NCBI GenBank assembly: GCA_008632985.1
Contig: QPGO01000108.1
Location: forward strand, 238,476 to 274,675
Direction of reading: 5' to 3'
Source of the DNA: Psammoneis japonica
Taxonomy: Eukaryota
DNA length: 36,200 nt
Shown here: piece after piece, positions 5,682-33,700 of the stretch
Numbering within the stretch: position 1 is the stretch's first letter
Layout: the number at the start of each line of letters is the position of its first letter
The notes under the pieces: model-generated
Databases searched by the model: none
Seen by the model: only the letters and a program-made list of their open reading frames with translations
What the model was told of the DNA's origin: nothing
Made by a program: the position numbers and the translations under genes

Positions 5682-6081
5682 GACATACAGCAACTCAACA
5701 AGAAAACAAAAACAACGACAACTGTTCGTGTTGTGCAGTTTTTGTTCATTCCAAAATCGAAAAAGGATTATTCGTGAGCGAATAATACATAACATTTTTG
5801 GAATTTCAATGTTATCCACGTTGACGATGAACGCGACATGATAACATTTCCAATATCAACATCCAAAGACGAATACAGTTAATGATCACAAATCTCCATC
5901 CGACCTCGCTCTGAAGCTTGAGCTCTGAGCATGCAACATTCAACCCTCGAGCCCCAAGTAAGAACCACAACAATGGTGTACCTCATGCTTTGATCTCACT
6001 TGCTCACCTCCGATAGCCCGACCAAGCTACCTAACGTAACAAGACATCACAGAACTCTTTATTGGTTTTGAGCTCTTCCCA

Positions 6082-6996: not shown

Positions 6997-7302
6997 CCCC
7001 GAATGTCACTCACAAAGCTTTCGGCACTCGAGTTTGCAAGAAAGTCGTTTGTGAAAAAGAGGTCTTATCCTCAGTTTATCAAACTTTCATGTCATCGAAT
7101 TGATTAGCTTCGAAGATACTTGTTATATTTTTTCTTTGTTGTCTCTATCACAATTTGCTTTCCCAATAAAAAGTCGGTTTGAGATGCGAGATAGAGGTGA
7201 AGGCATGAGCCAAGACGATGTCGCCCTGACAAAACTGAAGACTGTAGAGAAGCTGTAAAGAGACGTGAAGTAGAGTCGGCACAAAACGGAATATCTATGT
7301 GT

Positions 7303-8982
7303 TTATGAGCCCGGCGATCGGAAAATCTCCCTGTAAACATCATCTAACCGGTCACCGCACATGGATCTCAGTATAATCATCCACCATGTTCTTCTAAGAG
7401 CGCTCAAGACTTCCAATCCTGGATGAACCATGTGCTTTCCAATCGAATTTTCAATATTTATCTCTCGATTGTCGGGACGAGCCAATGTCATCCAGTACGC
7501 ATCCATTACTTGAATTGTGTCTTGGTATTCCTTCAAGACGTCAAACGCTATGCTGTTAAAGTGTGCCACCATGTTGGGTGACATGGAGAAGACTTGCTTA
7601 ATGTGTGGAGGCCAACTAAACCCGAAATTGCCGTATCGAAGCCAACCAGCTGTTGTTGACTGAAACACTTTTAATTCTGCCGGATAGTCCGCCATGTATT
7701 GAACAAGCCTCGTAAAGTGCTTTCGATACTCGACCGAGCACGACAGTTCTGTATCGCTTTGGTTCAAGACGTCAGTCCGAATAGCACTGTATTTTTCACT
7801 GCACAATTGTGCAACGTCGTGCAATCCAGTGTTGAAAATGACAAAACGGCGCTCGTCGGGAAAGTTCTCCTTAATGGCATCGAGTTCGGCGGTAACATTG
7901 CTCATCATAACGTGAATTCCTCCACTTGTAGAAATGCGAGTAGATGTAATATCAGGAGAGCCTTCTAGCAAGGACTGCTTGAATTGAATCTGCTGCAAAA
8001 GACTGACGGAATCTCCAACGAATATAACATGCACCGATTGATTCTTGTGATCTTTTCGGCACTGTCCAACGAGCTCGTGAAACTTGTCGGTACCGAGCAA
8101 GCTTGATTGTAGCATGGAGCAATCACTGGGCACATAGTCCATCATGATCCCCAAGGAATTCTTGCTTGACTGGTAGCCCCGAAGGGACACATTTTGGTTG
8201 GTGTTGTTGAAGCCGAGCTCATACCGCCGATTCGAAACCTTGTCCGTCACCACCCATCTCCTCTTGCCATAGGCGGAGTTACTGTCTGTCTCAACAAGTT
8301 GATCCAACAAGCACAGCTTGTGGCTGGTCATTTCACCAACTCTTGATACCTTTGAACTTTCTTGCACCGTGAGTTGAATTGGAAACCCAGAAACGAGGTA
8401 TCCTTCATACGCTGGGCTTTCTGGAACCATCGGATACGAATCGAAGTCAGGAGAATACGACGACACCAAAACCACTTCAACCGTGTAATTCCCAGGATCC
8501 ATTGGGAGAATAACGATGTTGTACGTTCCATCATGATTATCCTCGACCTGGCCGGTAATCACAGCGGGTCCGTATGCGCGAACGTAAAAGTGCGCACCGC
8601 CGTTTGTGCACTTTGCGTGATTGCAAACGATGACAAGCGTCCAAGGCTCGCCAACTTGACCCATCAATGGAGCTTTGTACATCTTGAAATTTCCAGCCAA
8701 GGTTGATTCGGGTCTGCTCCAACCCGTGTATCCAGGCAGTTCGCCGGGCACCAACGAAAGGGACGAATAATCGGCATTACCTCCTAGTGCTTCCTTGACG
8801 GTCGATCGCTCTGGGATACTGTACATGGTCGAAACCACATTTTGATAGACAGCAAACCCCGAGAGGAAGGTCAAAAGGACAACTAGCTTTTGCATCAACA
8901 TCCCTGCTTTTTTATGATGTGTCTTCAAGATTCTCGAGCCATTTTGAAAAAAGTGAGGGTGTGTTGATGTCGCAACAGACAC
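7303..8982 (-). CDS. Type II membrane protein with Ig/filamin-like repeat and SGNH/PC-esterase (NXPE-like) domain
   Basis: 559-aa ORF. N-terminal TM; GQVEDNHDGTYNIVILPMDPGNYTVEV (filamin-like); FVGDS, FNTGLHD and C-terminal HMVHP as SGNH-type blocks. Confidence 0.72.
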   Translation of the reverse strand: MSVATSTHPHFFQNGSRILKTHHKKAGMLMQKLVVLLTFLSGFAVYQNVVSTMYSIPERSTVKEALGGNADYSSLSLVPGELPGYTGWSRPESTLAGNFKMYKAPLMGQVGEPWTLVIVCNHAKCTNGGAHFYVRAYGPAVITGQVEDNHDGTYNIVILPMDPGNYTVEVVLVSSYSPDFDSYPMVPESPAYEGYLVSGFPIQLTVQESSKVSRVGEMTSHKLCLLDQLVETDSNSAYGKRRWVVTDKVSNRRYELGFNNTNQNVSLRGYQSSKNSLGIMMDYVPSDCSMLQSSLLGTDKFHELVGQCRKDHKNQSVHVIFVGDSVSLLQQIQFKQSLLEGSPDITSTRISTSGGIHVMMSNVTAELDAIKENFPDERRFVIFNTGLHDVAQLCSEKYSAIRTDVLNQSDTELSCSVEYRKHFTRLVQYMADYPAELKVFQSTTAGWLRYGNFGFSWPPHIKQVFSMSPNMVAHFNSIAFDVLKEYQDTIQVMDAYWMTLARPDNREINIENSIGKHMVHPGLEVLSALRRTWWMIILRSMCGDRLDDVYREIFRSPGS

Positions 8983-9164
8983 ATTTTACGTCTTTTTCAT
9001 CAACAAGAACAAAACATTCAATCGCTATATATACAATGATGAAAGCAAGGATAAAGTACTCATATTGCGTACATTTCTACGTACACATGTATCTGGTACA
9101 CAACCGTCCTGCACTCACCCTTTTCGCAGTGTTTTGCAGAAGATTTGTGAGATTGGCAAGCACC

Positions 9165-10001
9165 ATGGCGTCGTCAAAGGAGGCTTCGCCCTTGGCCGTC
9201 GTTGGCGAAGATGCAACCAAGTCGGAAAAAGTCCAATCAATGATTGCACCCTCTTTGTATCGTCTTACTGCCGGTTTACCGCGACGAGAACTCAAGCACA
9301 TTATAGAAGAAGCCAAGGCTTGCGAGGCTGCACTGGAAAAGGAGATTGAAGCGCTTGAAAGCGGCACCAACAAGGTGGCGGTTGACGTAATGTTGTCGAC
9401 TGAAATTACATCAGCTGATCGATATTATACCGTATCAGCATTGCTAGGACGCTTACGAGAGCCCGTCGCCACACCCCATCCGCCAAACTCATCACTCCCT
9501 CCAGAAATGCAGAAACAACGCATCACTACTAATGCCGCCTTGGAAGAAAAACAGCAGAAACTTTTGGATATGGAAAAGAATCCCCAATATCATGTCAAAC
9601 AAACAGCTGTAGCTCCTCTCTTGACATGTTGGAAAAAGATATCCTCTCATAGAACAGCCGCCGTGTTTCGGAAGCCGGTCAATGTCCGCGAGGCACCCGG
9701 CTACACGGACCGAATCAAGTTTCCTATTGACTTGTCTCTGATTCGTAAAATGATTACTGGTGGATTCATCAAGAGTTTTTCCGAATTGCATCAGAAAATT
9801 GGGCTCGTTTGTCACAATTGTGTCAAGTACAATGGGCGGGAGAGCGACTATGGGATGGTTGCGAGAGAATTTGAAGCGCATGCCGACGCATGCATATTAA
9901 TGGCTCTGGCGAGTACTAGTCGAACCACGACACCAACAGTCGAAGCACCAAAGCAGGCAAAAGCACCGATCAAGGCTACGAGCGATAAAAAAGCAAGCTA
10001 A
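9165..10001 (+). CDS. Bromodomain-containing protein
   Basis: HRTAAVFRKPVNVREAPGYTDRIKFPIDLSLIRK...NCVKYNGRESDY is a canonical bromodomain. ATG at 9165 lies within ORF 8919-10001. Confidence 0.9.
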   Translation: MASSKEASPLAVVGEDATKSEKVQSMIAPSLYRLTAGLPRRELKHIIEEAKACEAALEKEIEALESGTNKVAVDVMLSTEITSADRYYTVSALLGRLREPVATPHPPNSSLPPEMQKQRITTNAALEEKQQKLLDMEKNPQYHVKQTAVAPLLTCWKKISSHRTAAVFRKPVNVREAPGYTDRIKFPIDLSLIRKMITGGFIKSFSELHQKIGLVCHNCVKYNGRESDYGMVAREFEAHADACILMALASTSRTTTPTVEAPKQAKAPIKATSDKKAS

Positions 10002-10149
10002 CAGCACAAGCTAATCCTAACAAAATAATACGATTACTTGCTTTGCTAACTACTTTCGCGTCCATACGTCCATGGTAAAGTTCATTATCTTTGATCAAGT
10101 TCGGCCATTGCCAATTTGTCTATATTTACTGTACTGTACAAGCATCTAC

Positions 10150-11612
10150 TGCAATGCTTGTGCGTGCAGTCTTTATTTTACGGCGCAATAATTTTTTTCG
10201 CCATTTTCGTCGTGATCAGGAGAAAGGAGCACTGGCAGCGACAGCCATGCAGCTAGGGCCTGGTCGTCGTGGGTACAGCAGCAGACAAGCAAACAGCAAC
10301 CACTGACACAAATCATCAACAGTGGCCCCTGCATGCAGCCACAGCACTCCCATCTCTGTTGTCGCTCCTTGCGAGCCTTCCACTCCATGCTCCCTCGCCC
10401 CTCGCCTGCTTGCCCCATCACCAATGGCTTCCACCCAACCTCTTCCAGCTCACGCTGCAACCCAAGCTCCCCACCTTCTGATCTTGCCTGACTGCTCAAA
10501 CTCTGTGTCTTGACCCTGCTGCAGCGGCACTGCTGACCCGCGCAGAGACCACACTTTTTGTTGCCGCTCCCTTGGGCACAAAACAACCCCATCCAGTGCT
10601 GTCCATGGTGGTCTTTTGCCACTCTGCATGCAGACAATTGGCCTGTTGTCAGGTGTCTGCCAGGCCAACTGTTCAGCCACACACACAACAAACCTGCTGA
10701 CCTCATCCTGGTGCTGCATTCACCCCTCAAATGCCCCGGCCATGTTGGCGTTCAACTCACCCCAGCCACTGCCACACTGATCCTTCCACACCATGCAAGC
10801 ACAAAATGGAAGTTCAGCAGCAATCATGAAACACAGCTTGAATCTGCTGTCATGACCACCATGAGAGCCCTGAGCAGGCACTGGGCACACGCATCACCCC
10901 ACTTGCCTGTCGATCACTTGGGAGCACCTCCTGCTGCTGCTGGTGCTGCTTTGGACACTGCTTGCCATTTGGTGAAGACCAACTGTGCTCAACCCCCAGT
11001 CCCCCCTCAGGGATGCTCCCTGCTTCCACCACAGCCAGGTGGAAGATTGCTTTGTCAGCTGCCCAGACTCCGGGGGCCTTGGTGCTCGCCACACACCATC
11101 GCGCCACTCTCGTCCAGCGGAGCCTTCTTGTTCAGAGTCTCAGCCTTGCTGTGATGAAGTCTCTCACTGACCAGCTAGCCCGTTGCTCTAACGGACTCCA
11201 ATCACGCCTCACAACCCCTTCCCTCAAACCCTTGCCATCATTTCCCTCAGCCAGCAGCCACAGCCACATGATGTGACCCAGTGGTGCAGGCATCGGCAGG
11301 CAGCCCGCCAGCCAGCCAGGCAGGCAGCAGCAGCGTCTGTCCTTCACCGCGCAACAAAACCAACACAATCCAAATTCCAAATCGACAATCGACCATGGCG
11401 CACCATGATGCGTTCTGAAAAGCCAGCTGTTGCCATGGCACATTTTTACTGCTTCTTGTGCATCGTCCTTGGTGTGCGCAGCTCGCACTGTCTTGGGAAC
11501 AACTCAGTTGTCAAGTGCCCTCGAGTTGTTGCGGAACGCACGACTTTGACTCGGCGTGATGTTGCAGCGGCACCATCGCGCTGGGTAAAACGATGCAATC
11601 GTTGCACCAGGC
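10150..11612. mobile_element. Decayed TE-like island, TpA-depleted and CA/TG-rich; boundaries approximate
   Basis: Abrupt loss of TA dinucleotides; many overlapping C/H/Q/W-rich spurious ORFs; short hairpins near both edges. No family motif recognised. Confidence 0.5.
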
Positions 11613-11647
11613 TACAAAGTAGCGAGAATACAGCAATAGCAGCATCA

Positions 11648-12452
11648 ATGGTCAGAGGAGGCGGGATCTTCTCCGGGGAACTAATGGCTCAGAGTGAGTT
11701 TGCATTTATCGGACTACAAGGCGCTGTCCAGCTGGTGTTTCCTCTCTGGTACCTCAAAACAATAAAAAAGTCCACAGCTGTGAATGGAGAAAAGAAAGAC
11801 ATAGCCACATATTTTACAAGAGCACTTGGTTCTATCGAGCTTGGAGTTGCAATCACATTGTACCTGTCTATTATCAAGAAGAGTTCAACACGTCTCTCCA
11901 TCGGCTTTGGTCTCGTCCCTCGCGTGTTGTTCTTCTTGGCCAGCCTTGCCCCCGGTAAACTCAGATCTCTCGGGATGAAAAGCTCCTTCTTTACCTTCAA
12001 CACTGCAGTGACAACATGGGCTACTACTGCACTCCTTTTGAATATTGGAAATCCAGCAATGTCGGCACGTATCTTTTCCTGCATGGCAACGTTGAAGGCG
12101 TCCATTGTTGTCTTTCGTCCAAACAAGGCAAGCACAAAATACCTAGGATTGGACGTGAGCGGCAAAGGTGAGTGAGCGCTAAGTATTGTTCCATGGTGTT
12201 ATAATACCGAACTGGTATCTTTTCATGACACACTTTGCTTCGCTGCGCCATACAGAAATGGATAAAGTCAGATATCTGTGGCGGCTTCTCGGAACAGAGC
12301 TGCTGACGAGTGCAATCCTTATGGGACTCTTGGCCTTTAAAAAAGTATCAGTAACAAGGGCTGCATGGATAGCTGGAGCTGTGTTTCTCTTGCAGCAGTT
12401 GTCCATGTTTGCATTAGATGAAACGTGGCGGAGCGAGATTATATCGGATTGA
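11648..12452 (+). CDS. Uncharacterised multi-pass membrane protein; intron 12168-12255; N-terminus possibly cut off by the upstream island
   Basis: MVRGG start region, several TM-like helices, GTGAGT..TACAG intron joining in frame to exon 2 (EMDKVRYLWRLLG...). Confidence 0.65.
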
Positions 12453-12842: not shown

Positions 12843-13044
12843 TCGTTGGTGAGACGTTAGGGCAGAAGGCAATGAGCCAACTGCCGAGCGTCTGACAGAC
12901 CGGGACCGCTGACGTCAATCTAGAATGTAGTAGAAGTCAGGGATCGCCGGATGGAGGGCCTCGGTTCCTGTCTCATTCCTTCCAGGAAACCGAGGTTGAG
13001 AGGATGATGGCGGCGATGATGCCGCTTGAATCCTTTTTTGCTTT
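12843..13044 (+). repeat. Split direct repeat A1
   Basis: Near-identical to 20881-21082 (offset 8038); all differences are transitions. Confidence 0.95.
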
Positions 13045-13053
13045 GTTTTTCCT

Positions 13054-13137
13054 TTTTCCTTTGGATCGAATCATGTGGCCTCACTTGGCTCTGCCTTTCT
13101 TTTCCTTTGGATCGAACCACATGGCCTCACTTGGCTC
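13054..13137 (+). repeat. Two 38-bp direct copies with 46-bp period in the element 5' region
   Basis: TTTTCCTTTGGATCGAA[TCATG/CCACA]TGGCCTCACTTGGCTC at 13054-13091 and 13100-13137. Confidence 0.9.
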
Positions 13138-13267
13138 AGGCCCGCTGGCCACCTGAATGTCGCCCTCTGGCTCCTCTAATTTTTCAACTTTACAGTTGGA
13201 TTTATTCATTCATTACGCCTGCCACTCGGCCTTTTCCATCACGCCTGCTGCTCGGCTGCATTTGAAC

Positions 13268-13846
13268 TCATTTTCGCCTGCTGCACCGGCATTGCACCCA
13301 TCCCAATCGCCTGCCACTCGGCTTCCCTCTACCTCCCTTCTTCAGCTTCGTCTCGGGCCCCTCTCCGTGTGTGTTCCTTGCTGCAATTGCCACCGCCCTG
13401 AACATTCTGGACAATTCGTCAATCTCGGAGCTTTCCGCTTCACTCTCTCCAACCATGCGCGCCGCAGCGACCACCAGCTGCTCCAATCCAGCAGCGTTCC
13501 CCGTTTCCTCACGAACGGGAGCACTCAGTGCCGGTGTCACAGCAACCAATCGACAGAAACGTTTTTCCGACAGTTTCGATCGCCCTTGGGTGTCTCCAGG
13601 CCTTTCATGGCGCACCCTCAAATAAAATGGGGTTGTCTTCGCCACCGTGCCACTCTGCCCACGGTGGCCACCGCCCATCATTTCCACATGGTCACCCACG
13701 AGCCACTCCCTGGTCACCACCATCTTGCCCATTCCCTGCAGCTGCTTCGTTCCTTCCTCACCAGCTGGAGAGTGAATGCAACAGCTGTTGGTTTTAGTTG
13801 CCACATCAACAACGGAAACTAACGGCCATTTCTTTCGAGTCATCAT
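13268..13846 (-). CDS. Antisense accessory ORF of the retrotransposon with a KOW-like motif
   Basis: WLVGDHVEMMGGGHRGQSGTVAKTTPFYLRVR fits the KOW pattern (GDxVxxxxGxxxGxxGxV), followed by a predicted helical segment. Confidence 0.45.
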   Translation of the reverse strand: MMTRKKWPLVSVVDVATKTNSCCIHSPAGEEGTKQLQGMGKMVVTREWLVGDHVEMMGGGHRGQSGTVAKTTPFYLRVRHERPGDTQGRSKLSEKRFCRLVAVTPALSAPVREETGNAAGLEQLVVAAARMVGESEAESSEIDELSRMFRAVAIAARNTHGEGPETKLKKGGRGKPSGRRLGWVQCRCSRRK

Positions 13847-14206
13847 GCCTCACATCACTTCCAGTGCTGTGCACACACATTTGCCGAATTGACAAATTCA
13901 ATTGACAACCACTTCAACGACACGTCTGCCACGCGTGCATGAACTCCAACCGCCACAATTTCCCTTTCCCATTGTCACAATTGCAACAGACAATGGACGC
14001 ATTGTCGTCTTCCATTGGTCGAGCGCAATTTCCTGAGCCACATCATCATTCCACAATGATGTGGTGCGCCACATGCCCCTCCACGCCAACTTTTCACTGA
14101 GGTGGCACTGGGAGTTTCAACCCTTTCTCTCAGTTGCACCCATTCGAAACACTCACAATTTCGACAACGTCATTTTTGTTCATTCCGTCTCAAGTTCTCC
14201 CCGTCG

Positions 14207-16495
14207 ATGATGCCAGCTTCTCCCAGCACCCTGGGTGACTTCGCCCATCAGATGGCCGGTGTGCCACCGGCTGTTTCCTCCAGCTTCAAGCATGACCCTG
14301 ATAAAATCGCCTGCCTTGCCACCGCCATGTCTCGCACCATCAGCCCCACCATCCGTTCGGCCATGGTCAATGATCCGTGCTCCACCATCCAAACCATCGC
14401 AGTGGTCGACAGTTTTTTACGCGCACTCACGCGCCCAACCCTCACTTCCTCGGATGCTTTCAATGAAGCCATCGCACTGGCGAGCCTTGGGAACACCTTT
14501 GACAGCATCGCCCCTGTCAAGGTTAAGGACATGCTGGATGAGTGTGTTGTCACCCTCGTTCCCAAACACATTGCGGGCTCCCTTGATCTCCCCATCAGTG
14601 ACAAGAACCCGGCGATGTTGGACGCGTCTCAGCCCGACGAGGACGGGAATGAAGTCCCACCTGGCCAAGAGCGCCTGGGGTTTGACGCTGCCTCTGCTGA
14701 CGACATGCCCAAGTTCATTTGCATTCCCCTCGCTTGCCCTTTGGCGCTGGGCGAGCACCTTTGGGTTGATGTCCCCATTGAGGATGACATTCCTGCTTCT
14801 GTCCCCGTTTCGGCTCCCTTTCATTCTTGGCACACTGCTGTCCGTTACCTGATCTTGCACAGTTCAGGTAAATCCCTCCAGGCATGCGATGATCTTTTCA
14901 AAGAGGCTGAGTTCGTCAACATGTTCCAAGACTGCCAGCTTGCCAAAGGTCCCTCTGTCGAGTGCACCGTGCTCACCCCATGCACGGTCCATTTCGACAA
15001 TGTGCGCTCCATCCTCCAGGAGTTGCGCACTGCAGCTGTTTTTCGTCTTGCAGAAGACAAGGACCCTGCATCCATTTTCACCGGAGGGCCACCAGTGGCT
15101 GGCACCCCAGACCTAGAACGCCTCATCCGAGCCACAGTTGAGTCAGTCACTCGCCACAATCTGGACAAACCTCAGAACACCCTTGCCGGTTCGGAACGCG
15201 ACCAACGCAAGGAGACAGATGACGTTATCCTTCGTTGCCGTCTGCTCTTCTTGTCCATTGTTGAGGCAGTGGACAGTGACGGTCACATCACAGACAACCT
15301 TGTCACTGCTCCCCCATTGCGTGAGGAATTTTTGTCTGTCATTCGCACTTCCAAAAGCACTCGTGCTTTGGCACTCGCCATTGAGAACATGATGCAGCAT
15401 GTCAAGGATCGTGCCACCTCAGACTTGCACATCGATGGTTGTGCAGATTTTGACATCAAGCTTTTGGATCTTCCCTTTGTCACGCGTCTGATTTCGCATG
15501 GATGGGCACCAGTCCCTCCCATTGTTGACCCAGACTCCATCAAGGACAAGCTTGGCATCCATCATTTCGCCAAGCCCAACCAATCGTGTGTCAAGTGCCT
15601 TGCGCGAATCGAGAACGGTCGCACTCTCCTTCGTCAAGAGCAGGTCGGTGAGGAGGACACTGAGAAAAACAAGAAAACCACAGACCTGTGCTTCACTGGC
15701 ATGATGGATTCCCATGAAATGGTTGACACTGCAGTGGGCAATCTGTGGATCTTTTTTACCTTTGCATCAGACGCCTTCCTCGTGACCAACCCGAAAAAAT
15801 TGCCGGCGGCATGGCCAGTCATTCAGGCCTTTTTGCGGGTCAAGAACAGCCCAGAAGGACGCGCTTGGGCAACTCGGCACCGGGCAACGCAGCATGTCTT
15901 CATCCATGTGATCCAATCTCTCCAGCACATCTTGTCACCTTTTGTCTCCCTTGGCAACATGCTGGCACATCGTAATGCTCTTGCTTCCGGTGTGCAGATC
16001 AGTCCGAAAGCGATTGCCGATGCCACGGCCCAGGCTGTGTTAGAGGTCACACGCCTCACGAATGTCATTTGGAGTGGAGACTTGGGCGAATGTCGCGACG
16101 AGCCACCCATCATGAGGCTCGTGGGCCCAGCATTGTCGTGGAGTGATGCATCCAATGCGTCCTCCAAAGGTTCCACAAACTCACCCGAAAAACCCAGGAG
16201 TGACAATGCTGCACGGAGGCGAACAAAGCCAAAGGTCTCGTGCGTTTCAACGGCTCTGGGAAACCGCCGATTGCAGATTCAATCATGGCACCTCACCCTG
16301 TCAAGAAAAAACCCGACATGATTTGTGGCAACTTCACTGCTGTTGGCTGCAGCTGCTGGTTTGGCGAACGTTGCAACTTCTCACACCCGACGTCTGTCGA
16401 GAAACTTCCGGGCGAGGCACGCGCAGCCTACAAGAAGTTCGTCGATGATCATGCTGAACTTGCTTGGGCCAACCAGCCTTCTTCTGGTGCGCAGC
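14207..16495 (+). pseudogene. Gag-like ORF1 of the Ngaro element with C-terminal CCCH zinc finger; frameshift near 16240
   Basis: Long ORF 14102-16321 lies upstream of pol. After a frame change it reads ICGNFTAVGCSCWFGERCNFSH (CCCH-like). The end is approximate. Confidence 0.7.
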
Positions 16496-16532
16496 TGTTG
16501 CGCTCTCGCCCAGTTGCGACACAATCTGACAC

Positions 16533-19391
16533 TTGGGCACCTGTTTTCTGTTCAAATTCGCAGATCCAGTCTACATTTGTCCCAACAACCTCGTCCCGCC
16601 GCTTGTTTCCATGCGAGATTATCCCGCCAACCTTTCGGTCACCGACTCCGCTTCAGACACCACCAGCACAACCTTCCCTGGTGACATGGACATCCGAGAG
16701 GTCGATGAAGACTGGGACCTGGATGAATTTGCTCTGACAGTGTCTGCAGTCACCGAAGGATCGCCACAGCCGATTGCAGAAGGGGTCACAGACAAGAAAG
16801 TTTCCAGTCCGTCCGATGTCAGGATTGACAGCACCCCCGCGGGCCGTCACTCTCAAGTTCAAGCGCGCGAGGTCTTTGTCAAGTCCCATCTTCCGTCCAA
16901 AATGCAGTGTCAACTCGACCAACCTTTCGGTGAGCCGTCCCTCAATCACTCGTTTTTTTCCGAAGTGAAACTTCGGCATGTCCTTTTGCCACTCTGTGGG
17001 TCAGGTGTTTTTTTGCGCAAGACTCGAGCGCACCTTGAAGTGGCCTGCAAGCCCGCACGATGGTCACCCAAGCTCATGCGAGACCACCAAGGTGTTGATT
17101 TTTCACGGATCCAAGACCCAATCCCGAAGGGTGTGGAAGTGGACTCCATGATGAAGGACCACAGCCGCATGTTTGCTGCCGCGGCTCTTCATTTCGATTT
17201 GGAAATCCCGGCTCTTATCTCATGCGTTGGCGGGATTCACGTTGGAGCCCATCGTGATGCTGATGCAATTTTGCACACCCTTTGAAATGGTGGAGTAGCC
17301 CACGAGCCAGTCGACGAACTGCAACGGACATGCAAAGTGGGGTGCCCTCGTCTCTGCCAGGCAGAAGCTGCAGAGGAGAACTTTCGTGAGTTCGTCAGGT
17401 GTGGCAACCACTCGTCCGTCAACGAGGTGCCACACAAGACCATGAAGGCTGTTGCGAAAGACATTCGCCGTGGGTGTGCCATCCCCTTTCACCCGGCTCT
17501 GCTTTGGTTCGTTCCGCACCTGCATCGGACGCCCCTTGGCATGGTCGACCTCCTCAAACCACACAAGTCGCCACAGAACATTTTTGACTCGTCCTTCTGT
17601 CCAAAACCTTGGTGCAACGCCATCAACGACTGGACAGACAAAGACAATGAACCGGAGCTCATTTTCGGCGGTTCTAAGATGCGTTTTCTTACATGGCTTT
17701 GGAACCTCCAAATTTCACACCCGACATCAGAAATCCACCCGGGCGATGACGATGTGGCTGGCGCATTTCGGCACTGCAAGTGCAACCCATTTGTTGTTGC
17801 CATGCACAGCTTCCTCATTTTCGGCTGCCTCGTGATGGCCACTGGCCAGACTTTCGGTGATGGACCTGGTCCGGGGAACTGGGAAGTTGTTGCGCGTTGT
17901 TGCCAGCAACATGCACAGTGCCTTTGGCATCGTCCAGACACGCTGGAATGCGCAATGCCGCATCACCCCAAAATCGTTTTCGAGCCGCCACCTCCCGATG
18001 CAGTCTTTGCTCCAGCAAACAAGAACGCGCTCAATCCCGGCGTTCTCCTTGCAGACGGGTCGCGGCGTGCTCCAACCTGCGACCATCATGTCGACGACAA
18101 CATGTGTGCGGACGTAGCCGAGCACATGCCACTCACTGTCTCGTCCAGTGTTTTGGCACTTTACACCGTCCTTGGCTTTCCGTCTGAAAAATGCTCAGAC
18201 TCTTTTTCGTGGGAGAAGTTCAAGAAGCATTTTGCGCATTGCAGAAAAATCATTGGGATTTGGGTTAACACTCGCGCCATGACGATCTCTTTGCCGGACT
18301 ACAAGTGTGAGCAGCTGGTGGCTGTCCTTGCGATTTGGCTTGCCCGCGATTCCTTTGCTCTCATTGAAGCAGCCGAACTCATGGGCTCACTTGTGGATGC
18401 CGCTCTCCTCTGCCGTTGGGGACCCATCACTTTTTTTGCTCTCCAGAACATGGTTCGTACCATCCTGGCCAGGCGATTTCACATGATCAAGGGTTGCCAC
18501 AATCGCACGAGGCAAGTGAAGGAATTCACGGACCAGATGCCACACACTCTTGAGCACAGAGCACTCTCCCTTGTTTCCCAAGATGTGGCCCGTCTGCTGT
18601 GGAGTGACGGAAAACCAGCAAATGTGACCACCCAGCTGCGTCAGGAGCTGTCATGGCTACATGATCATTTGTCTGACCCCACGAACCCGTGGGAGGTGAT
18701 GATTGGCCACCTTGTCCCACGCACACCAACCTTTGTGAGCACTGGAGACGCAAGTTTAGATGCCGGAGGAGCTCTCTCTGACAACCTGTGCCATTGGTTC
18801 GACGTCCTGTGGTCTGACAAGGTCAGGGGTGGCGCACGTTTGCCCAGCAGCCGAGACTACGTCCATGTCAATTGCCTGGAGTGTGTTGTGCAACTGCTGC
18901 AGCACGCCGCAGCTGTCGTCATGCTGGAGGAAGGCCTTTCGGAGGATCTGCTCGCCAAGCTCCCGGACTGCCAATTGCCCCCGCTTCCGATCCTTCTGTC
19001 TAGGACCGACAGCATGAGCTCTTGCAAATGGACAGCCAAAGTGTCTTCTACGTCGTTGCGTGGTCAGAACCTCCTGAAAATCCAAGGATCGTTGCTCTCA
19101 CGGTCTGATCTTGGACATCAGAGCGATTGGCTCCCCGGTCACAAAAACATCAACCCAGATCTCATTTCGTGCCCGGACCTCACCATTCCCCCTGCACTTT
19201 GGCATGCACAGATGTTCCGGAGAATTCCGAAGCTGCGATCCCATCGTTTTTTCCAGCCAAGTCACGAGCTCGTCTCGCCAATCTCGTTGCATCTCTTCAC
19301 AAAACAATGGCTGGCCCCCCCAAGTCTTCCAAGCAACTTGGGACGATTCACAGCCGGCGAATCCATTGCTTCATTTTCAGTTATGATCTGG
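16533..19391 (+). pseudogene. Reverse transcriptase / RNase H (pol) of the Ngaro element; in-frame TGA at 17283-17285
   Basis: RT motifs DDVAGAFRH, GQTFG..GPGNW, HHVDDN, KIIGIWVNT; RNase H motifs TGDASLDAGG, HVNCLE, RTDS, GHKNINPDLIS. ORFs 16533-17285 and 17337-19715 share a frame. The end is inferred. Confidence 0.88.
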
Positions 19392-20462
19392 GTCCATTGG
19401 ACGACTGGCTCCTCGTCAGGGCCTCCCAAGAGCGCAGGAACTGCCAAGTGGCACTCTACGCCACGCACCTCGCCACCGGCAGCACCTTGGTGTGTCGCAC
19501 TGTTCGTGGCAACACGATTGCAAAGCACCCACTGGACGTGGTGTCGTTCATCAAGCGCTTTCCCAGGTGGTCCCCCGGTGACCTGTGCAACAATGATCCA
19601 AGGCACTTCTTGGCTCATGACAAGGAATTTGCCCCGTGTGTCGCTCAAGTGCTTGTGGAATGCCGTCGCTGGGTTGCGAGTCCTTTGCCATCAACATGTG
19701 GTCATTCCTGGCTGACTTGGCCAGCAAACACGACGAAGACTCCATTTGGGCCGTGTGTCGCGACTGGTTCAGCATTGGCTCACACACGGTGGGTTTCGCC
19801 TCTCGGAATGGGCGCAACACAACGATCGCCCAGACCCACGCCACCCGCACATTGCTCCCAACGGAACAGTGTGTGCTTTCACCCTTGAGGGCACCCAGCT
19901 TTTTGACTCCAACTTGCACCCGCTTAGCTTTTCGGAAGCCCTTCGGCACACGGACCCGGATTCATTGCGTCTTGAGCTCACTTTCTCTTGGCAAAAGAAT
20001 GGGTCGCATGGCGAGCGACGCTTGTTCACCTTTGACAGTGCACGCTGCGACATGAGCCCCGTCACCCTGTTTCTTGACATCTTGCGACATTTTGACAGGC
20101 TTTTTGGCATGTCATCCAAGGATGCACTCCTGAGCTTGTGTCGTCGTGAGGATGGCACTGTGCTTTCCGTGACTGCAAGTGACATTTCCCACGTCATGCG
20201 GGCGGTTGCCAGTCGCAAGTTTAACCTGGATCCGCGCAGGAAATCTCATGCAAAGATCCTTTCCAAGTGGTCTTCGCACTCCATCCGTGTGGGTGCTTGC
20301 TGCATTCCATGCGCCATGGGCTTCTCGGAGGACCAAATCCAGTTTCTCCTGCGTTGGCGCTCGCGCGCTTTCGTCGCCTGCTTGTGCAATCTCACCATTC
20401 TGTCCAACAAGCAGAACCAGGTGATGGCAGACCTTCTTGGCATTGTGCCAAACACACTTTAA
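19330..20462 (+). pseudogene. Tyrosine recombinase of the Ngaro element (frameshifted; catalytic Tyr position reads Cys)
   Basis: GFRLSEW (R), WQKNG (K), SHSIRVGA (HxxR), LRWRSRAFVAC (RW..S....Y position). The N-terminal part lies in frames 19127-19888 and 19636-20055. Confidence 0.88.
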
Positions 20463-20684
20463 TCTTCAACCCTTTGCTTCCAATCTTTCTTTTCTACTTC
20501 GTGCATCCACTGCATCCATTCCAATGACAGCACAAACGGTTTTTGGTGCCACAAAATTTCGCCAATTTGCACCTTTTTCCCTTTTTCTTTTCTTTTTCTT
20601 TTTTTCCAGACGCCCACTCCCACTCCAAGATGGCACTCTCCTTTGCATTTCCCTTTGTCACATGCAACTGTGAGTGTTCGACCT

Positions 20685-20880
20685 GGGCAGGATTGTGCAC
20701 CTCAACTCGAGCGAATCCGCAACCCGGATTTCAAACTCTAGAGTGCACGTTTCCGCCACACGCTGCAGCTCACAACTGTCCCCCACTGGTTTGACCACGC
20801 GAGCGGCAACCAGTCACACATCTGTCTTGGACGGAGAGTTTGCTGGCGTCCAAGGTGGGACCAGGGAATCTGCTGGATTC
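20685..20880 (+). repeat. Split direct repeat B1
   Basis: 20685-20791 matches 21102-21208; 20791-20880 matches 22545-22634. Confidence 0.93.
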
Positions 20881-21082
20881 TCGTTGGTGAGACGCCAGGG
20901 CAGAAGGCAATGAGCCAACTGCCGAGCGTCTGACAGACCGGGGCCGCTGACGTCAATCTAGAATGCAGCAGAAGTCAGGGATCGCCGGATGGAGGGCCTC
21001 GGTTCCTGTCTCATTCCTTCCAGGAAACCGAGGTTGAGAGGATGATGGCAGCGATGACACCGCTTGAACCCTTTTTTGCTTT
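20881..21082 (+). repeat. Split direct repeat A2
   Basis: Copy of 12843-13044, directly abutting B1. Confidence 0.95.
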
Positions 21083-21101
21083 TCCCACCCACCCAATTCC
21101 C

Positions 21102-21211
21102 GGGCAGGATTGTGCACCTCCACTCGAGCGAATCCGCAACCCGGATTTCAAACTCTAGAATGCACGTTTCCGCCACACGCTGCAGTTTGCAACTGTCCCC
21201 TGCTAGTTCAA
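21102..21211 (+). repeat. Split direct repeat B2, 5' part
   Basis: Matches B1 at offset 417 up to the TCAA target-site copy. Confidence 0.92.
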
Positions 21212-22544
21212 GTGGGCGCACCACAGTTCTCGGCCCGTTCATTTTCTACGTGGCCTGGCACAACCCAAATCTGTGTAGATTCAGTGCATTTTGCCCTGCA
21301 GAACAGTTTTTGGGAGTGTTTTCTGGCTCGCGACGCAAAATGACATGCAAAACAACACGGACAATGGCGTTTCGCCGATTTCAAAAATGCGGTTGTTTCT
21401 GAGGTACTTTGTAGTGTACTCTCAATGGAATGTCTTACGTCACAGCATGAGGCATGTGACAAGCTCGAGAGTGCACAGGTTCATGTGGGTGGCTGATGGT
21501 GAAAATTCTCACTGAAGGTTCGCGTTGACAGCGTCGCTTCTGTTGCATCACGACCGACCTCATGCAGCACCATTCGTGCTGTGTGTTTCGTTGAGGCTTT
21601 ATACATTAACACCCGTTTGACTTACATGTGTTGTCTCTTTCTACATTGTTCTTTTGTTCTGCAGGGTCTCAGTCGTCGCAAGGTGTCCCAGAAACACTTT
21701 TCCTCGTCAAGAATGTCAATTCTGCAATGCGATGGCCGTGGCAATTCCAAAACGAGGCAAAGTCACAGACACAGCATCAGGCTGACTTCATAATGAACAC
21801 GGTGATTTGGGGCTATGGTGTCAAAAGCTGGACAAGCTCTCAAGAGCTCAGATCCGTCACAGTGCATTTTTGACAATGGTTCTCCCCGCCTCCACTTGGT
21901 GATGCGGAGTTTGATTCGGCAGACCAGTGCATCATGGCTGTTCTGAAGGTTTAGATTGCTTCTTTTGGCTGCAAGGTAGTTTGTGAGCTAGAAATGTGTG
22001 GCTTGCTTGCCCAATTTGTCAGCCAATGCAACAAACTTAGAGGGTGACAGCCGGGGCAGATGATCATTTTGTCAAGTCTAAAAAGCAGCTAAAGATTGTA
22101 TGCCAACAAGAAGAACTAGCTTTAAAATTTATCATGGGGGTGTGGACTTTATTTTGTTGGGGTATCACGTCTCCATTGTTGTTCTAGAGTGAACATTAAC
22201 TGGTGTTGTTACCGCCAACGTGCGAGTTCGCCTTGACAATCGGTTGCACTGTATTCTGAGATTTTGGAATAAAAAACAACTTTTGTTTACATTGCTCTAT
22301 TATAAGAGAAAGCTTATTAGCTTCCCCTGGCCCTTTTGGAGCAATCGGGTAAGTGAAAGAGGAGCTGCAGAAAGATGCGGACGACGCCATTTTGATGCGT
22401 TGTCGTCAGGTGGTGTCGTCGTGAGGTCGCGTGATGGAGTGCCATGCTTTCTGTTTTGTACTGCGTCTGTGTAGGAATGTACGTGATTGGCTCTCTGGTA
22501 GTTTCTACGTAAAAAGTGTACCAGGCGATCTCTGGACCGCCCTC
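21212..22544. mobile_element. Nested non-autonomous DNA transposon with TTAA target-site duplication (Kolobok- or piggyBac-like)
   Basis: Interrupts B2. Flanked by TCAA (21208-21211) and TTAA (22545-22548). Imperfect TIRs: GTGGGCGCACCACAGTTC..TTTTCTACGTGG versus reverse complement GAGGGCGGTCCAGAGATC..TTTTTACGTAG. Confidence 0.78.
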
Positions 22545-22634
22545 TTAACTACGCGAGCGGTAACTAGTCGCACATCTATCTTGGACGGAGAGTTTGCTGG
22601 CGTCCGAGGCGGGACCAGGGAATCCGCTGGATTC
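22545..22634 (+). repeat. Split direct repeat B2, 3' part (element right end)
   Basis: Matches 20791-20880 (offset 1754) with 9 transitions; similarity stops exactly at the B|A junction. Confidence 0.93.
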
Positions 22635-22870
22635 CAGACCGTGCGGCAGAGCGGTTCGATCGCTCGCCCAGAACAATTTTGCTGGCGCTGAACTTGTTGG
22701 ATGCGAGGACGATGACGCTGCTGTCGTTTCCTGATGAATGAATCATCGAACAAATGAAAAGCACCCATTAGACTATTATTCCACAATTTTGGAGTCACTG
22801 CTGCTGAACGAAGAAAGAGTTGCGTTGATCTTATGTTTTGAACAGCTTCTGCGATAACCACTTGCAGCAC

Positions 22871-27949: not shown

Positions 27950-29420
27950 CTCTTGCGAGAATGGCGTCAAAATTTCTGCACCCTTCGGCCTTCACAACCA
28001 CCAATGACAGATGCCTTCTTGAGCTTGAGAAATCCAGGGTTTTGGTGGAGCCGGAACAGAATTTTTATGTTTTAGAACTTTTGCATTTTAGAATTTTTCC
28101 ACTTCTACCAATGCCCACCACTTCATTTGCTGTCACTGAAACCCAATTCGCTCATCTTCATTGTTTGAACAACATCAACAAGCTGTTGCAAAAGAAAATC
28201 CTGGGGACAGTGATTCCATCCCAATTGGTGCGAGGTTCTTCCAAGATGCACCCAGTGTTGTTCAACCAAAAAGCAATTGAGATTTGGTCAGGAGTGCTCA
28301 AGAGCTGTGAATGCTGTGTGCCCAAGTGTTTGCAGGACCCAGTTTTGCACATTTTTTCCTCTTTGCATGTCGTGGCTGCTTTGATTTGGTGGCAGCACAT
28401 CATGCTTTTGACTGCAATTTTCTGTTGGAAATGCAGGTGGGCTGACAGCAGGTTGACAAATGGTTGTCAGTTGCACCTGCACAAAGTGTCATCATTGCCT
28501 TCTTGTGTGCACTTTGTCACATCAATGCTCACAGAAGTTGAGAGAGCATCATCAGCTCCTGTTGACTTTGGAGACACAGCCAACAGATGTGCACAATTTC
28601 TGCCGAGGACCGCTGCTCTCTTGATGGAGGCACCTTTGGCAAGCAGCAAGAGTTCCATTCAGAGGTGATGGTGCCCCTGCCAGCAGTGATGGGTGACCAC
28701 ACTTGCCTGTGTCAAATCTAAGACTTGTCAGGGCTTACAATGCACAGAGGGTCACATTGCTGAGGCATGACCCGGGTGTGTGCGATGGTGTGAGCAAGGC
28801 TGCACACATGCCGCTTTGAAGAGCTTCTTGCTTGCTCCGGCCATTGAGACCATCAAGAGCAAGCAAATGTGACCACCACTCACACTGTCATGAGCCAGCA
28901 ATGCTTTCTTTGCAAGAAAGCTCAGCAACAAAAGCAGCAAAACAGCTCCCAAAACACATGTGGTGTGCACTGCACGCAGCTTTGTGAAAAACAAAGAGAG
29001 AACGAGGCCATCTCATTTTGGAAAATGAGACCTGGTGGGGATTCAAGCTGGTGGAAAGGTCAGAGGAATGACATGCTGCAAACAAGCATGATGGCATCAT
29101 GTTGGTCTGCTGTGGTGGAGAAACAGAAGAACATCAAGAAGCAAGACCACGCTGAGCCACAGGTGAGGACGAGGGAGATGATGATGGATGACGACGACCA
29201 CCCCCATCTCGAAAACCAGCAGCAGCAGCAGCAACAACAACAACAGCACTGAGTCAAACAATCAACACAAGAGCATGTGCAGCTCATTCAGAGACTCCAT
29301 TGTGATGATTAACTCCAACACTGGCAGCTTCCAATCACCAAGCTTAATTAACAACGGAAGGGACAGACCGGGTCGCTGGACAGACGAACCACGACTCGTT
29401 GCGCGCGCGATCCAAGATCC
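27950..29420. mobile_element. Decayed TE-like island, TpA-depleted; boundaries approximate
   Basis: Near absence of TA from ~28130 to 29300; C/H-rich, Y-poor spurious ORFs on both strands; located between intact genes. Confidence 0.5.
29217..29246 (+). repeat. (CAG)n(CAA)n microsatellite
   Basis: CAGx5 CAAx4 CAG. Confidence 0.9.
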
Positions 29421-30775: not shown

Positions 30776-33700
30776 TCACGGTCTGAAGAGGTCGTTCTTT
30801 GAAAACTCGCTTGGGAATTCGCCACGGCTGGGACAAATCCTGTTCAGCATGTCTTCGTCGTCCACCCCTGCCCATCTGCCGACAGCGGGCCATATTTGAT
30901 CAAAGCTTGTCGTGGGTATGAAGCGTCCACGTCCTAAATTGAGTTCGCCGTTTTCCGACATGTCCTCGGGGTATTCTCCCAGGATTTTGCCGCCCTTGAC
31001 GGAGCCACCAAATAAAAAGTAATTGCCACCCCACGCATGATCGGTTCCTCCGCCGCTATTGGGAGACAACGTCCTTGCAAAATCACTTACTTGCACCACT
31101 GTTGTACTACTCCACATGTCTTGCTTCTTAAGCTCCGTCGTGAACGCGCTGATGGCCTCATTCACATCCGAAAAAAGACTCGACAAGCCCTCCTGCATGT
31201 TGGAATGTAGATCAAAACCTCCCATCTAGACATTACAAGAGAGCCGAGACAGACATGATTAGACAAGCCGTAGCTACAGCATGAGACAAGCAGAAAAATG
31301 TACACTCACCTCGACGTAAAAAACATCGGCATTCTTGCCCCTCTCTTTGTGGGTTCGTATCATTTTTGCTACAATTTCTAGCTTCTTTCCAATGTCGGAC
31401 TCACCAAAGTCTTGGCTGACCTGCGCGAGACGCAGCGTCTTGTAGAGAGCTTCGTTCTGTTTTAATGATTCAATGAGCAAATTTGACCACGTGCTCGCCA
31501 TGAAACCGCTGTCCACATTTGTGGCGTTGTTTAGATCCTTAATGGTACGAACCATAGTCGACCGTGTCATTGTAGCTGCATCGGTTGGCATGAACTGGCT
31601 GACACCTGCGGGGCTCAAACTGATCGGTGGCGGAGTGACACGGGCATCTCCCACGAGTGCGATTGAAGTGGAGTCAATTGAGACAGAACCAACCGAAAGA
31701 CCTTGATAAGACATTGCATCAGCAAGTCTGCCCAAAACGCCAGTACCTGATGCAGCGTCGAACAAATCAACTCGTTTTGCACTTCTCTGCATTGTGTTGT
31801 GAGCGAATAACTGTGTTGGGGTGTCTTGCAAATACGTTTCTTTGCTGGACGGTCGACCAAGAGAGCCGGTGTTTGCAAAAAACAACAGATCTTCCTCGTT
31901 GTATAATCGTTGCACAATGGGTAAGTCCTCATGCACACCAAAGGTTGAGCAGCCAACTTGACCAGATCCGCCAATCGGTAAGAGATTCTGTTGCAGTAGA
32001 TGAGCAGGAGTCCTAGCTTTGACGTATCGTGAATATGCGTCATCCCCACCACCTTGGCGTGCTCTGCATGTCTTGGGTACAAGCATATTGAAAGAGTCGC
32101 AACCACCAGCAAACATCAGCATAACTACCGCCTTGTAAGGCCTTCCTGGCACCGGAATACGCTCCGGTGTCTCCTGAAGGGCTTCACCACTCAGTTTAAC
32201 CTTATTCGTTGTGTGAAACTCTGCGGTCGTTACTATAAGCAGCTGTGCAATGCGTAACCCCGCGTCCCTGTCGAACTTTTCTACTGCGTCATCATATGCT
32301 TCCATTATCGTCTGCCGACTCTTCGCATCTAAACGGCCTGATGTCAGTATCGTCGCAAGTTCATCGACCACTTCCTTGGATGTCGTCCCGGTCGGACGAA
32401 AGGTGAGCATTCCAGTAGCGCGCATGTTGCGACCGTCATCGAGGCACTTTTCTTTGTATCCGCCGGCAATTGTAAAACCAAAGCCATGATCACAGTCTGA
32501 AAGCCCATACTTTATCAGACTTTGAGCGCCATTCACCCACGCCACCATTCGAGCTGTCTGCAAAATAACAAATCGACGAGGCACAATAATGAGAGCTTCC
32601 AATAAACGGGACGAACAAAGAAGAGACTAAACGACAAACTCACATCTAGAAGCTGAGCTTCGGGGGCAACAAGCGATCCAGTTGAAACTCTTCCATCAGG
32701 TTGGTATTCCGAAAGGAAGAATGAAAAAACTGTTTCTTGCTCGTGCGCCATCTGACCTATCTTCTCGTTAATATTGTCGAAAACCACGTATGGATATCCT
32801 CCAGGAATTCCTGTCTTCGGCTTGAATTCCATGCTGCGCATTAGACCAATCACCTTCAAGAGAGGTTCGCGAATGGATCCGTGAGCGGGATCCACATCGA
32901 GCACCGCTGAACGAGGCTCTCTGTCAAGAAGAATAGCTGCGATTGTAGAAGCGAGATCTCCATATTTACCTGTGCCAAAGCTAGTGTCCCCGGACTTGAA
33001 CGTTCCGGTTCGAAAAGCAGTTGCACACTCCTTAACGTATCGCGGGCTCGGGTTCGAGATGCCGAACCGCTGGATAAGCCGGGTACACACGAAGGGCGCC
33101 GTGTTTGGATGGTGCACAAGGTGCGTAAGCAATGCTTCAGTCTCGTATTCCACATCGCGGACCGTAGCCTCAGACGGTACCAAACTGTTAAACTGCACAG
33201 GGTTTCTGAAGCTAAACGAAGAGTCACCAAGCTCGACAGCCACCTCAGCGTTCTTCAGAAAAAGCGTACGACCAAATTCATCCACAACTTCAAAAATCGT
33301 ATCAGACGTGTAGCTGCTCGGACTACTCGGCATGTGCACGGTGAAATCATTGATCCTCCTAGACTCGAACTTCCCTGAATCAAACGATGCAGGGTCCGGG
33401 GCACCGATCCGAAGCTGGGAAATAATCAAGTCGGAACTGGCGGGGTCACGGTCGAATACAATCATTTCTTTTACGGACGTGTCACATAGGCAGTTCTCTC
33501 CTTCGATTGTCTTGCACCAAAGGGTATCACAGTCTCCGCTCTTTTGTCGAGGGTAGGCACCATCCGCCCATGGAACGCGGAAATAGTTCGTTGTGTCGTC
33601 GTCAACATGCAGCACCTTTCCTCGACCGCCATTCGCAACAGTGAAGTCATGGACTAACGCAACAAAGCCACGTGGATTTACTTTCACCTGCAGCATGCAC

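Follow-up and report, generated by a model that had tools for sequence, protein, structure and literature searches.

The stretch of DNA analysed here (the window, 36,200 nucleotides (nt) of contig QPGO01000108.1 of the diatom Psammoneis japonica, positions 238,476 to 274,675) carries a dead tyrosine-recombinase retroelement, and the region under study is the 3' repeat block of this element. Self-comparison of the window placed the element at 12843-21208, a span of about 8.4 kb, with the order A1 - first open reading frame (ORF1) - reverse transcriptase (RT) and RNase H - recombinase - B1 - A2 - B2, where A and B are repeats present in two copies each. We consider it highly probable that the DNA of this element has undergone a localised hypermutation of TpA to CpA and TpG after its repeat copies last shared a sequence, accompanied by a slower decay of CpG. 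An initial annotation of this DNA had proposed that sites with CA in one sister repeat and TG in the other come from an ancestral TA mutated on either strand. That TA was the ancestral state at these sites is very probable, because the rates of change in sister repeats, protein outgroups, the composition of the whole element and other copies of the family all agree.

All of the coordinates and letters listed in the initial annotation are present in the sequence. B1 and B2 differ as CA (20771-2) to TG (21188-9), CA (20784-5) to TG (21201-2) and TG (20787-8) to TA (21204-5), while A1 and A2 differ as TG (13020-1) to CA (21058-9) and as TA at 12928 and 12931 to CA at 20966 and 20969. A tandem pair with a spacing of 46 nt has TG (13074-5) facing CA (13120-1). 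The three repeat pairs hold 21 differing bases, 20 of which are transitions, and the reciprocal CA/TG sites number four (13020-1, 13074-5, 20771-2 and 20784-5). Random placement of the same transitions and transversions gave a mean of 0.16 reciprocal sites; none of 20,000 trials reached four, and the maximum of three was seen in 5 trials. When the sister-repeat sites were sorted into classes, TA was found in both copies at 2 sites, TA/CA at 3, TA/TG at 1 and CA/TG at 4, and for CG the counts were 21 in both copies with CG/CA and CG/TG at 1 site each. The corresponding loss per copy is about 0.5 for TA and about 0.045 for CG, and these rates predict 1.0 reciprocal site if the origin was TA and 0.024 if it was CG. 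The initial annotation had read the direction of change from sites where one copy keeps TA; a lone difference between TA and TG gives no polarity, and the direction comes from the rates, the protein outgroups, the composition and a site found in three states.

The observed/expected ratio (o/e) over the element is 0.11 for TpA, 0.78 for CpG, 1.50 for CpA and 1.38 for TpG, and the TpA ratio of the flanks is 0.51-0.53. In 79 related loci the TpA ratio ranges from 0.48 to 0.92, with none below 0.48, and since none is depleted of TpA we used these loci as outgroups only. Compared with the median ratios of the relatives, the element has a deficit of 238 TA and 155 CG and a surplus of 210 CA and 152 TG, and the books therefore roughly balance. 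Only 49 TA remain in the element, compared with 225-287 expected.

The proteins tell of the same direction of change. Over 492 columns that are conserved among the related loci, the window retains none of the 13 conserved tyrosines (six became Cys, four His, two Phe and one Ile) and 21 of the 35 conserved arginines (five became Cys, three Gln, one His and five other residues). Changes of the TA type at conserved columns number 23 and those of the CG type 12. In an alignment with 23 homologs the window keeps one of seven conserved tyrosines, and each of five control homologs keeps seven of seven. The tyrosine content of the three ORFs in the window is 0.4, 0.1 and 0.0% (0.1% in ORF1), compared with 2.5-4.5% in 31 homologs. 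From P0004, the closest homolog, to P0001 there are seven changes of Tyr to Cys, six of Tyr to His and six of Arg to Cys, with no reverse change of any of these kinds.

Two comparisons at the level of DNA bear on the ancestral state. The window also contains, at 22545-22634, an unmutated version of the A repeat's 5' part (90 nt, retaining 5 TA and 9 CG), which serves as an outgroup. It differs from A2 at only nine places, all of which are TA or CG in the outgroup and CA or TG in A2, with all five TA and four of the nine CG lost from A2. At site 12928-9, A1 has TA, A2 has CA and a contig from a public run has TG; each of these states is one step from TA, and CG was never seen there. A possible second site in three states (TA at 22550-1, CA at 20796-7 and TG in a contig) comes from an alignment by hand and is weaker than the site at 12928-9.

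Contigs from this public run (X1), which holds 60% of the sampled 31-letter words of the stretch and may be the source sample of the window itself, represent the retroelement family in multiple copies, and they differ from the window at 651 transition places versus 80 transversion places. The best-supported 40 of 739 difference rows resolve into 30 events: nine CA to TG doublets in either direction, six sites with TA in the window and CA or TG in the contig, nine sites with CA or TG in the window and CG in the contig, three sites with CG in the window and TG or CA in the contig, and three other events. Among these same 40 rows there was no site with CA or TG in the window and TA in the contig. 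Contigs from a second run (X2) gave almost no cover over the element, and we drew no inference from them.

The TpA-depleted domain is unstranded and coextensive with the retroelement (12843-21208), with a weaker depletion continuing to about 21600. In every 500-nt segment from 13001 to 20501 the TpA ratio is 0.04-0.22, and just to the left it is 0.71-0.76. TA is dense up to 12760 and the next TA is at 12858, which places the left edge within 100 nt of the start of A1. To the right of B2 a milder depletion (o/e 0.24, with normal CpG) extends for about 400 nt, after which TA is normal. Strand bias, which the initial annotation had named beforehand as an observation that would speak against its proposal, is absent: at the conserved columns Tyr changed to Cys six times and to His four times, and Arg changed to Cys five times and to Gln or His four times.

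In relatives of the element, 11 of 12 sister pairs from seven loci are 100% identical and the other is 99.5% identical, although overlap in the assembly at the ends of contigs may account for some of the identical pairs. These 12 pairs are the long-range or B-type rows among 38 rows of self-comparison, the 26 short-range tandem arrays (68-92% identity) having been set aside. If TA or CG is the ancestral state, then at each of the six single TA or CG differences it is the internal copy (A2 or B1) that has changed, and the figure would become 11 of 11 if the other AT to GC differences were polarised in the same way. Because the strands are symmetric, the edge of the domain is sharp at A1, the A fragment at 22545-22634 is unaffected and the sister repeats of relatives are nearly identical, we infer that the hypermutation likely acted on integrated duplex DNA within a bounded domain. 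The initial annotation had stated that the process acts on integrated double-stranded DNA, and these observations lend that statement good support, short of proof.

The loss of TpA depends on the flanking bases and is fastest at RTAY and slowest at YTAR (R, purine; Y, pyrimidine). The 49 surviving TA comprise one RTAY, 29 of mixed context and 19 YTAR, where the flanks or the relatives would lead one to expect 14-15, 25-26 and 8-9 respectively (chi-square p about 2-5e-6), and no TA among these 49 is found in the contexts ATAT, ATAC/GTAT or ATAG/CTAT. Reconstruction gives an NTAY context for each of the four reciprocal sites, and CTAG is the context of both TA that the two sister repeats have retained. 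The same pattern is seen in P0161, an independent hypermutated relative that shares 73% identity with the RT of L001, which is unmutated. Relative to L001 it keeps 7 of 26 tyrosines (13 became His and six Cys) and 31 of 38 arginines, and the tyrosines are kept at 0 of 9 RTAY, 6 of 12 CTAY and 1 of 5 TTAY codons (Fisher p = 0.058). The base before the Tyr codon does not discriminate between a lesion on A and one on T: in the window a pyrimidine there precedes two changes to His and three to Cys, a purine likewise two to His and three to Cys, and in P0161 a pyrimidine precedes seven changes to His and three to Cys.

CpG decay is a slower companion process in the element and not merely an alternative to TpA loss. 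Its reality follows from the changes of Arg to Cys, Gln or His (9 of 35), the CpG ratio of 0.78 and the four of nine CG lost in the 5' part of A2. The initial annotation had held out CG as the other possible origin of CA/TG pairs; CG does not account for the reciprocal sites, but the decay itself is present as a second process. The two processes are separable, because some relatives have the TpA signature but little loss of Arg. Conserved Tyr columns became two Cys, one His and one Val among four in P0255 (Arg kept at 10 of 12); two Cys, two His and one Phe, with one Tyr kept, among six in P0240 (Arg 10 of 11); three Cys, one Glu and one Phe among five in P0212 (Arg 10 of 13); and four His and two Cys, with three Tyr kept, among nine in P0161 (Arg 13 of 15). 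More generally, P0161, P0240, P0212, P0255/P0301 and P0248, which come from public collections and separate assemblies, have 0.0-1.2% tyrosine, with Tyr changed to Cys or His at conserved sites and Arg mostly kept. The purging of tyrosine from these relatives means that the TpA process has hit several subfamilies.

As to mechanism, we propose that A following T would be deaminated on either strand of the self-complementary TpA. The A would become hypoxanthine, which pairs as G, so that an event on the top strand would give TG and one on the bottom strand CA, and two sister copies of one ancestral TA would often come to differ as CA versus TG. About four fifths of the TA of the element have been lost, the loss halts at the left end of the element, and CpG has been converted more slowly to TpG or CpA alongside, as expected for a methylated transposon. 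tRNA adenosine deaminases edit an A that follows the invariant U33, which would fit the requirement for TA. Perhaps an adenine deaminase related to tRNA-editing enzymes (ADAT/TadA) is responsible, by analogy with what has been proposed for the chlorarachniophyte Bigelowiella natans, and we put this forward tentatively. Mutation-accumulation lines of that species gained 231 mutations in two regions of integrated viral DNA, of which 230 were A to G or T to C, all at TpA, and an ADAT2-like protein is named as the proposed candidate (10.64898/2026.01.13.699255). The preprint also describes 124 TpA-poor clusters rich in CpA and TpG, with reverse-transcriptase and DDE domains enriched among the depleted genes (10.64898/2026.01.13.699255), and it mentions that ADAR and ADAT-type enzymes prefer U or T 5' of the edited A (10.64898/2026.01.13.699255, Mettrop et al.). 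Alternatively, the T of TpA may be modified so that it is read as C; because TpA is palindromic, this chemistry is indistinguishable from deamination of A.

Several observations weigh against the interpretation that TpA was hypermutated in place on the integrated element. For the four reciprocal sites themselves, polarity is read from rates and neighbouring evidence, not from all genomic copies. Four reciprocal sites exceed the 1.0 predicted by a simple TA model (Poisson probability about 0.02); the excess reflects either differences in rate between sites, as the context effect suggests, or an underestimate of the loss per copy. Five or six of the 21 sister-repeat differences are AT to GC changes outside TpA, and these changes, like the CpG decay, may be processes separate from TpA loss. 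By comparison, change in B. natans was nearly exclusive to TpA (230 of 231), and the marked CpG decay and minority of non-TpA AT to GC changes set the present element apart. The loss of four of nine CG from the 5' part of A2 is far above the 2 of 46 CG copy-sites lost between sister repeats, and part of the divergence of A2 may predate this insertion. The high-copy sequence adjoining the element (21601-22544) has a TpA ratio of 0.54, which is no depletion, so that the targeting is not accounted for by copy number alone. One transcript of a split-repeat element may include the two A and the two B copies together, in which case independent editing of RNA or complementary DNA (cDNA) could likewise make sister repeats differ. 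Finally, the enzyme behind the loss of TpA is a candidate only.

The most serious rival is APOBEC- or ADAR-like editing of the RNA and/or the minus-strand cDNA at UA/TA in the course of retrotransposition, so that the copy would have arrived already hypermutated and its sister repeats would differ through lying together on a single edited template. This would be in keeping with the family copies in the run X1 contigs, all of which carry the signature with different outcomes, and with the state of the copy itself, which is dead and has Cys for the catalytic Tyr of its recombinase, like edited retroviruses that are dead on arrival. Moreover, the replication route of split-repeat elements is unsettled, and the identity of sister repeats at insertion is therefore an assumption. 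However, editing of a single strand would be strongly asymmetric, and here the strands are about equal, both at the tyrosines and in the surplus of CpA and TpG (210 versus 152). The identity of the sister pairs of relatives (11 of 12) also argues against it, as do the derived states lying internally in A2 and B1 with the ancestral ones at the edges in A1 and B2, which has the look of a chromosomal domain, and the milder depletion that runs some 400 nt past B2. To our knowledge ADARs are confined to animals. In B. natans the signature arises de novo on integrated DNA. On balance we regard editing during retrotransposition as unlikely and prefer action on the integrated duplex.

The remaining rivals are much weaker. 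That the reciprocal sites were once CG, deaminated on opposite strands by plain decay of methylated CpG, gains from the decay that does occur in the element and from the known CpG methylation of diatom transposons (PMC9998398); but with 21 CG kept in both copies and two hit once, hardly any reciprocal site is expected where four were found, such decay could neither remove TA nor account for the Cys and His codons at 10 of 13 conserved Tyr positions, and site 12928-9 shows every state but CG. We hold this to be very improbable. Equally improbable is an artefact of sequencing or assembly, in which modified bases at TA and CG were miscalled in long reads. Miscalls at methylated motifs are mostly transitions and would be confined to methylated repeats, which would suit such an explanation, but the run X1 contigs (word depth 55-130) reproduce the letters of the element with 0-3 differences over 254-380 nt, though possibly from the same sample, and other hypermutated relatives come from separate assemblies (JGI, ENA and Logan). 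The reverse polarity, with C to T changes at CpA or TpG creating TA as in fungal repeat-induced point mutation (RIP), we consider hardly worth entertaining. Any single difference of TA to CA or TG fits either direction, but RIP enriches TpA and the element is depleted of it, conserved Tyr codons were destroyed and not created, and RIP could not produce a CA/TG pair at one site from either state.

The element that carries this signature is a deep-branching retroelement of the DIRS order. The repeats (with the A fragment at 22545-22634), ORF1, the pol frame and the recombinase frame described below are on the forward strand. The left terminal copy of A (A1, 12843-13044) matches A2 (20881-21082) at 193 of 202 bases and corresponds to the 3' two thirds of A2, with a weak likeness already from 12827. 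The tandem pair with one reciprocal site (13054-13137) consists of 13054-13091 and 13100-13137, identical at 35 of 38 bases. B1 (20682-20791), with reciprocal sites at 20771-2 and 20784-5, and B2, the right terminal copy (21099-21208), agree at 101 of 110 bases. Between them is the full internal copy of A (A2, 20791-21082), of which the 5' part (20791-20880) matches 22545-22634 and the 3' part matches A1. We presume that this split direct repeat layout is like that of Ngaro/PAT-like elements.

ORF1 (14060-16321, 753 codons) is unassigned in function; it is homologous to the first ORF of about 805 amino acids in relatives, with 26 tblastn matches to related loci. An ORF at 13157-13822 had no match in the 79 related loci. 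The pol frame (16530-20462, 1310 codons, 31 homologs) encodes the RT and RNase H and then the C-terminal half of the tyrosine recombinase, and is interrupted by in-frame TGA stops at 17283-5 and 19713-5. Alignment places the N-terminal half of the recombinase in another frame (19109-19885), shifted with respect to the single ORF of the relatives. It is alignment with the relatives, too, that shows the catalytic Tyr of the recombinase to be Cys in the window copy.

For the middle protein, 31 homologs were found; they are about 920 amino acids long and none has a Pfam domain. Pfam scans of the ORFs of the element and of 24 family members found no significant family, and a search of PDB sequences with the family profile gave no matches. 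An AlphaFold model of P0004 (predicted local distance difference test (pLDDT) 79.5, predicted template modelling score (pTM) 0.78) was used in a structure search, and this retrieved the reverse transcriptases of foamy virus, cauliflower mosaic virus (CaMV), Ty3, Moloney murine leukaemia virus (MMLV) and human immunodeficiency virus 1 (HIV-1) with a best E of 5e-8. There were 80 matches at E <= 0.001, and all chains through rank 50 were reverse transcriptases. In addition, the atlas neighbours of the family are annotated with RVT_1 and RT_RNaseH. The middle protein is thus an RT with RNase H, as judged by predicted structure. The counterparts of the last protein in relatives, with which it aligns, are ORFs of 420-430 amino acids that end in HSLRVG ... 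LLRW.S.AF..YLRN, which we take to be the catalytic region of a tyrosine recombinase with its H-x-x-R ... Y motifs. Pfam Phage_integrase gave a weak match (E = 0.038) in one of three scanned recombinase ORFs of relatives.

This retroelement family is known mostly from aquatic metagenomes and forms a deep, undescribed branch. The A1 ... B1-A2-B2 layout of the window is repeated in relatives L013, L065 and L077. These three and two others (L009 and L011) are aquatic metagenome contigs with identical A and B pairs and intact ORFs of about 805, 975 and 427 amino acids, which suggests that they are recently active members of an undescribed lineage of tyrosine-recombinase retroelements.

To the right of the element, 21216-22751 is a very high-copy repeat family located between B2 and the unmutated A fragment, with a summed contig depth of 2900-11000 compared with 55-63 in the unique flanks. 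Within it, 21458-21478 resembles part of B. The unmutated fragment at 22545-22634 covers exactly the part of A2 (20791-20880) that is missing from A1. Perhaps the element opened inside one A copy at integration, so that its left end would consist of the 3' part of A and its right end of the 5' part, and under this view 21209-22544 may be a later insertion or an extra segment of the element. A run contig joining 21208 to 22556 was considered as B2 abutting A elsewhere; it is more simply the B-A junction of another copy and was not used for the structure.

Outside the element, two islands (10275-11175 and 28107-29309) are nearly free of both TA and CG, with TpA ratios of 0.05 and 0.03 and CpG ratios of 0.31 and 0.23 respectively. 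Their CpA ratios are 1.7-1.9, their TpG ratios are 1.9-2.1 and their edges are sharp; the first has no TA for 900 nt and the second two TA in 1200 nt. They look like older, fully converted insertions, although no homology was found for them: when the islands and 21209-22544 were compared with the related loci (tblastx and blastn), no match was longer than the short ones of 10-49 residues or bases, and these we read as uninformative low complexity.

The genes flanking the element are ordinary eukaryotic ones, encoding a bromodomain protein, a senescence-domain protein and topoisomerase I. Among named relatives, those closest to the topoisomerase are all from diatoms (Fragilaria, 77%; Seminavis, 73%; Nitzschia, Fistulifera and Cyclotella), which marks the host as a diatom, and the best unnamed relative is at 80%. 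A run X2 contig skips 88 nt at 12166-12253, which have GT..AG ends and mark a short intron in the neighbouring gene on the left (its ORF spans 11192-12175 and runs on to about 12668). This gene is not depleted of TpA, and the element lies about 170 nt beyond the end of the intron-skipping contig. On the reverse strand, 31277-35370 contains adjacent intron-free ORFs that match DUF1800 (E 3.5e-43) and, weakly, DUF1501 (E 0.008). We take such a pair to be typical of planctomycete-type bacteria, and its presence in a diatom nuclear contig may reflect an old gene transfer. Scans of the window with Rfam and for tRNA genes gave no matches.

The hypermutation has consequences for annotation. TAA and TAG each occur about 2.0 times per kb per strand in the element versus 8.1-8.6 in the flanks, with TGA unchanged, and the G+C content is 0.54 versus 0.48. 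The loss of TAA and TAG leaves long open frames on both strands and allows the element to evade Pfam: between 9000 and 23000 there are 46 ORFs of at least 100 amino acids in six frames, and many long overlapping frames that are not genes lie on both strands of the element. The loss of Tyr codons and of these two stops thus produces long false ORFs, missed by profile searches, and distorts the annotation of genes and transposons.

A TpA-specific mutator acting on resident foreign DNA had previously been reported in one preprint, for one chlorarachniophyte. Our full-text literature searches found no report of such a mutator in diatoms or for retrotransposons, and the only match to the signature was the B. 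natans preprint. New here are a diatom host, a retroelement as the target class and a dependence on flanking bases that was not found in the preprint text compared. That a diatom retroelement family bears this footprint, and at much greater depth, suggests a wide occurrence of the process among marine protists. The window offers a second system for the enzyme search, in which the loss of RTAY and retention of YTAR set a standard that any deaminase or base-modifying enzyme put forward has to match. A wider interpretation, which we hold to be somewhat less likely than not, is that diatoms have a dedicated mutator for genome defence, which would edit the adenine of 5'-TA-3' in the double-stranded DNA of resident retroelements, preferring the palindrome RTAY and acting within a CpG-methylated chromatin domain, and that it is the same ancient system as in B. 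natans. If true, this would be a functional counterpart of fungal RIP across the Stramenopiles, Alveolata and Rhizaria (SAR), with the opposite chemistry, and it would explain the islands at 10275-11175 and 28107-29309 as old insertions that were fully converted.

Compared with known systems, the element resembles DIRS-order retrotransposons in its A1 ... B1-A2-B2 layout, in the combination of RT/RNase H with a putative tyrosine recombinase and in having no long terminal repeats; it differs in that its proteins are without any Pfam match and in an extra first ORF of about 800 amino acids. The decay of methylated CpG in transposons converts CG to TG or CA on either strand and is also present in the element, but it leaves TpA untouched and is about tenfold slower per site in the sister repeats. 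Fungal RIP also makes dinucleotide-specific transitions in place on both strands with nearly untouched flanks; however, it changes C to T at CpA, creates TpA and lowers G+C, whereas here TpA is destroyed and G+C is higher. APOBEC3 and ADAR likewise inactivate retroelements by clustered transitions driven by a deaminase, but they act on single-stranded cDNA or RNA and leave a signature on one strand, whereas here both strands are affected and the sister repeats differ.

The closest counterpart is B. natans, where the preprint describes TpA changed to TpG or CpA on either strand, only in foreign or mobile DNA with normal flanks, and a lasting footprint of TpA depletion with an excess of CpA and TpG (10.64898/2026.01.13.699255). 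The host there is a rhizarian and here a diatom (Stramenopiles), and the target there is a single-copy giant-virus or virophage insert and here a multi-copy tyrosine-recombinase retroelement. The depletion is deeper here, with a TpA ratio of 0.11 versus 0.45 in the nucleocytoplasmic large DNA virus (NCLDV) region of B. natans. The RTAY/YTAR rule found here has no equivalent in the preprint text that was compared. Lastly, the changes in B. natans were observed de novo in mutation-accumulation lines, whereas those in the diatom element are known from the footprint they have left in its sequence.

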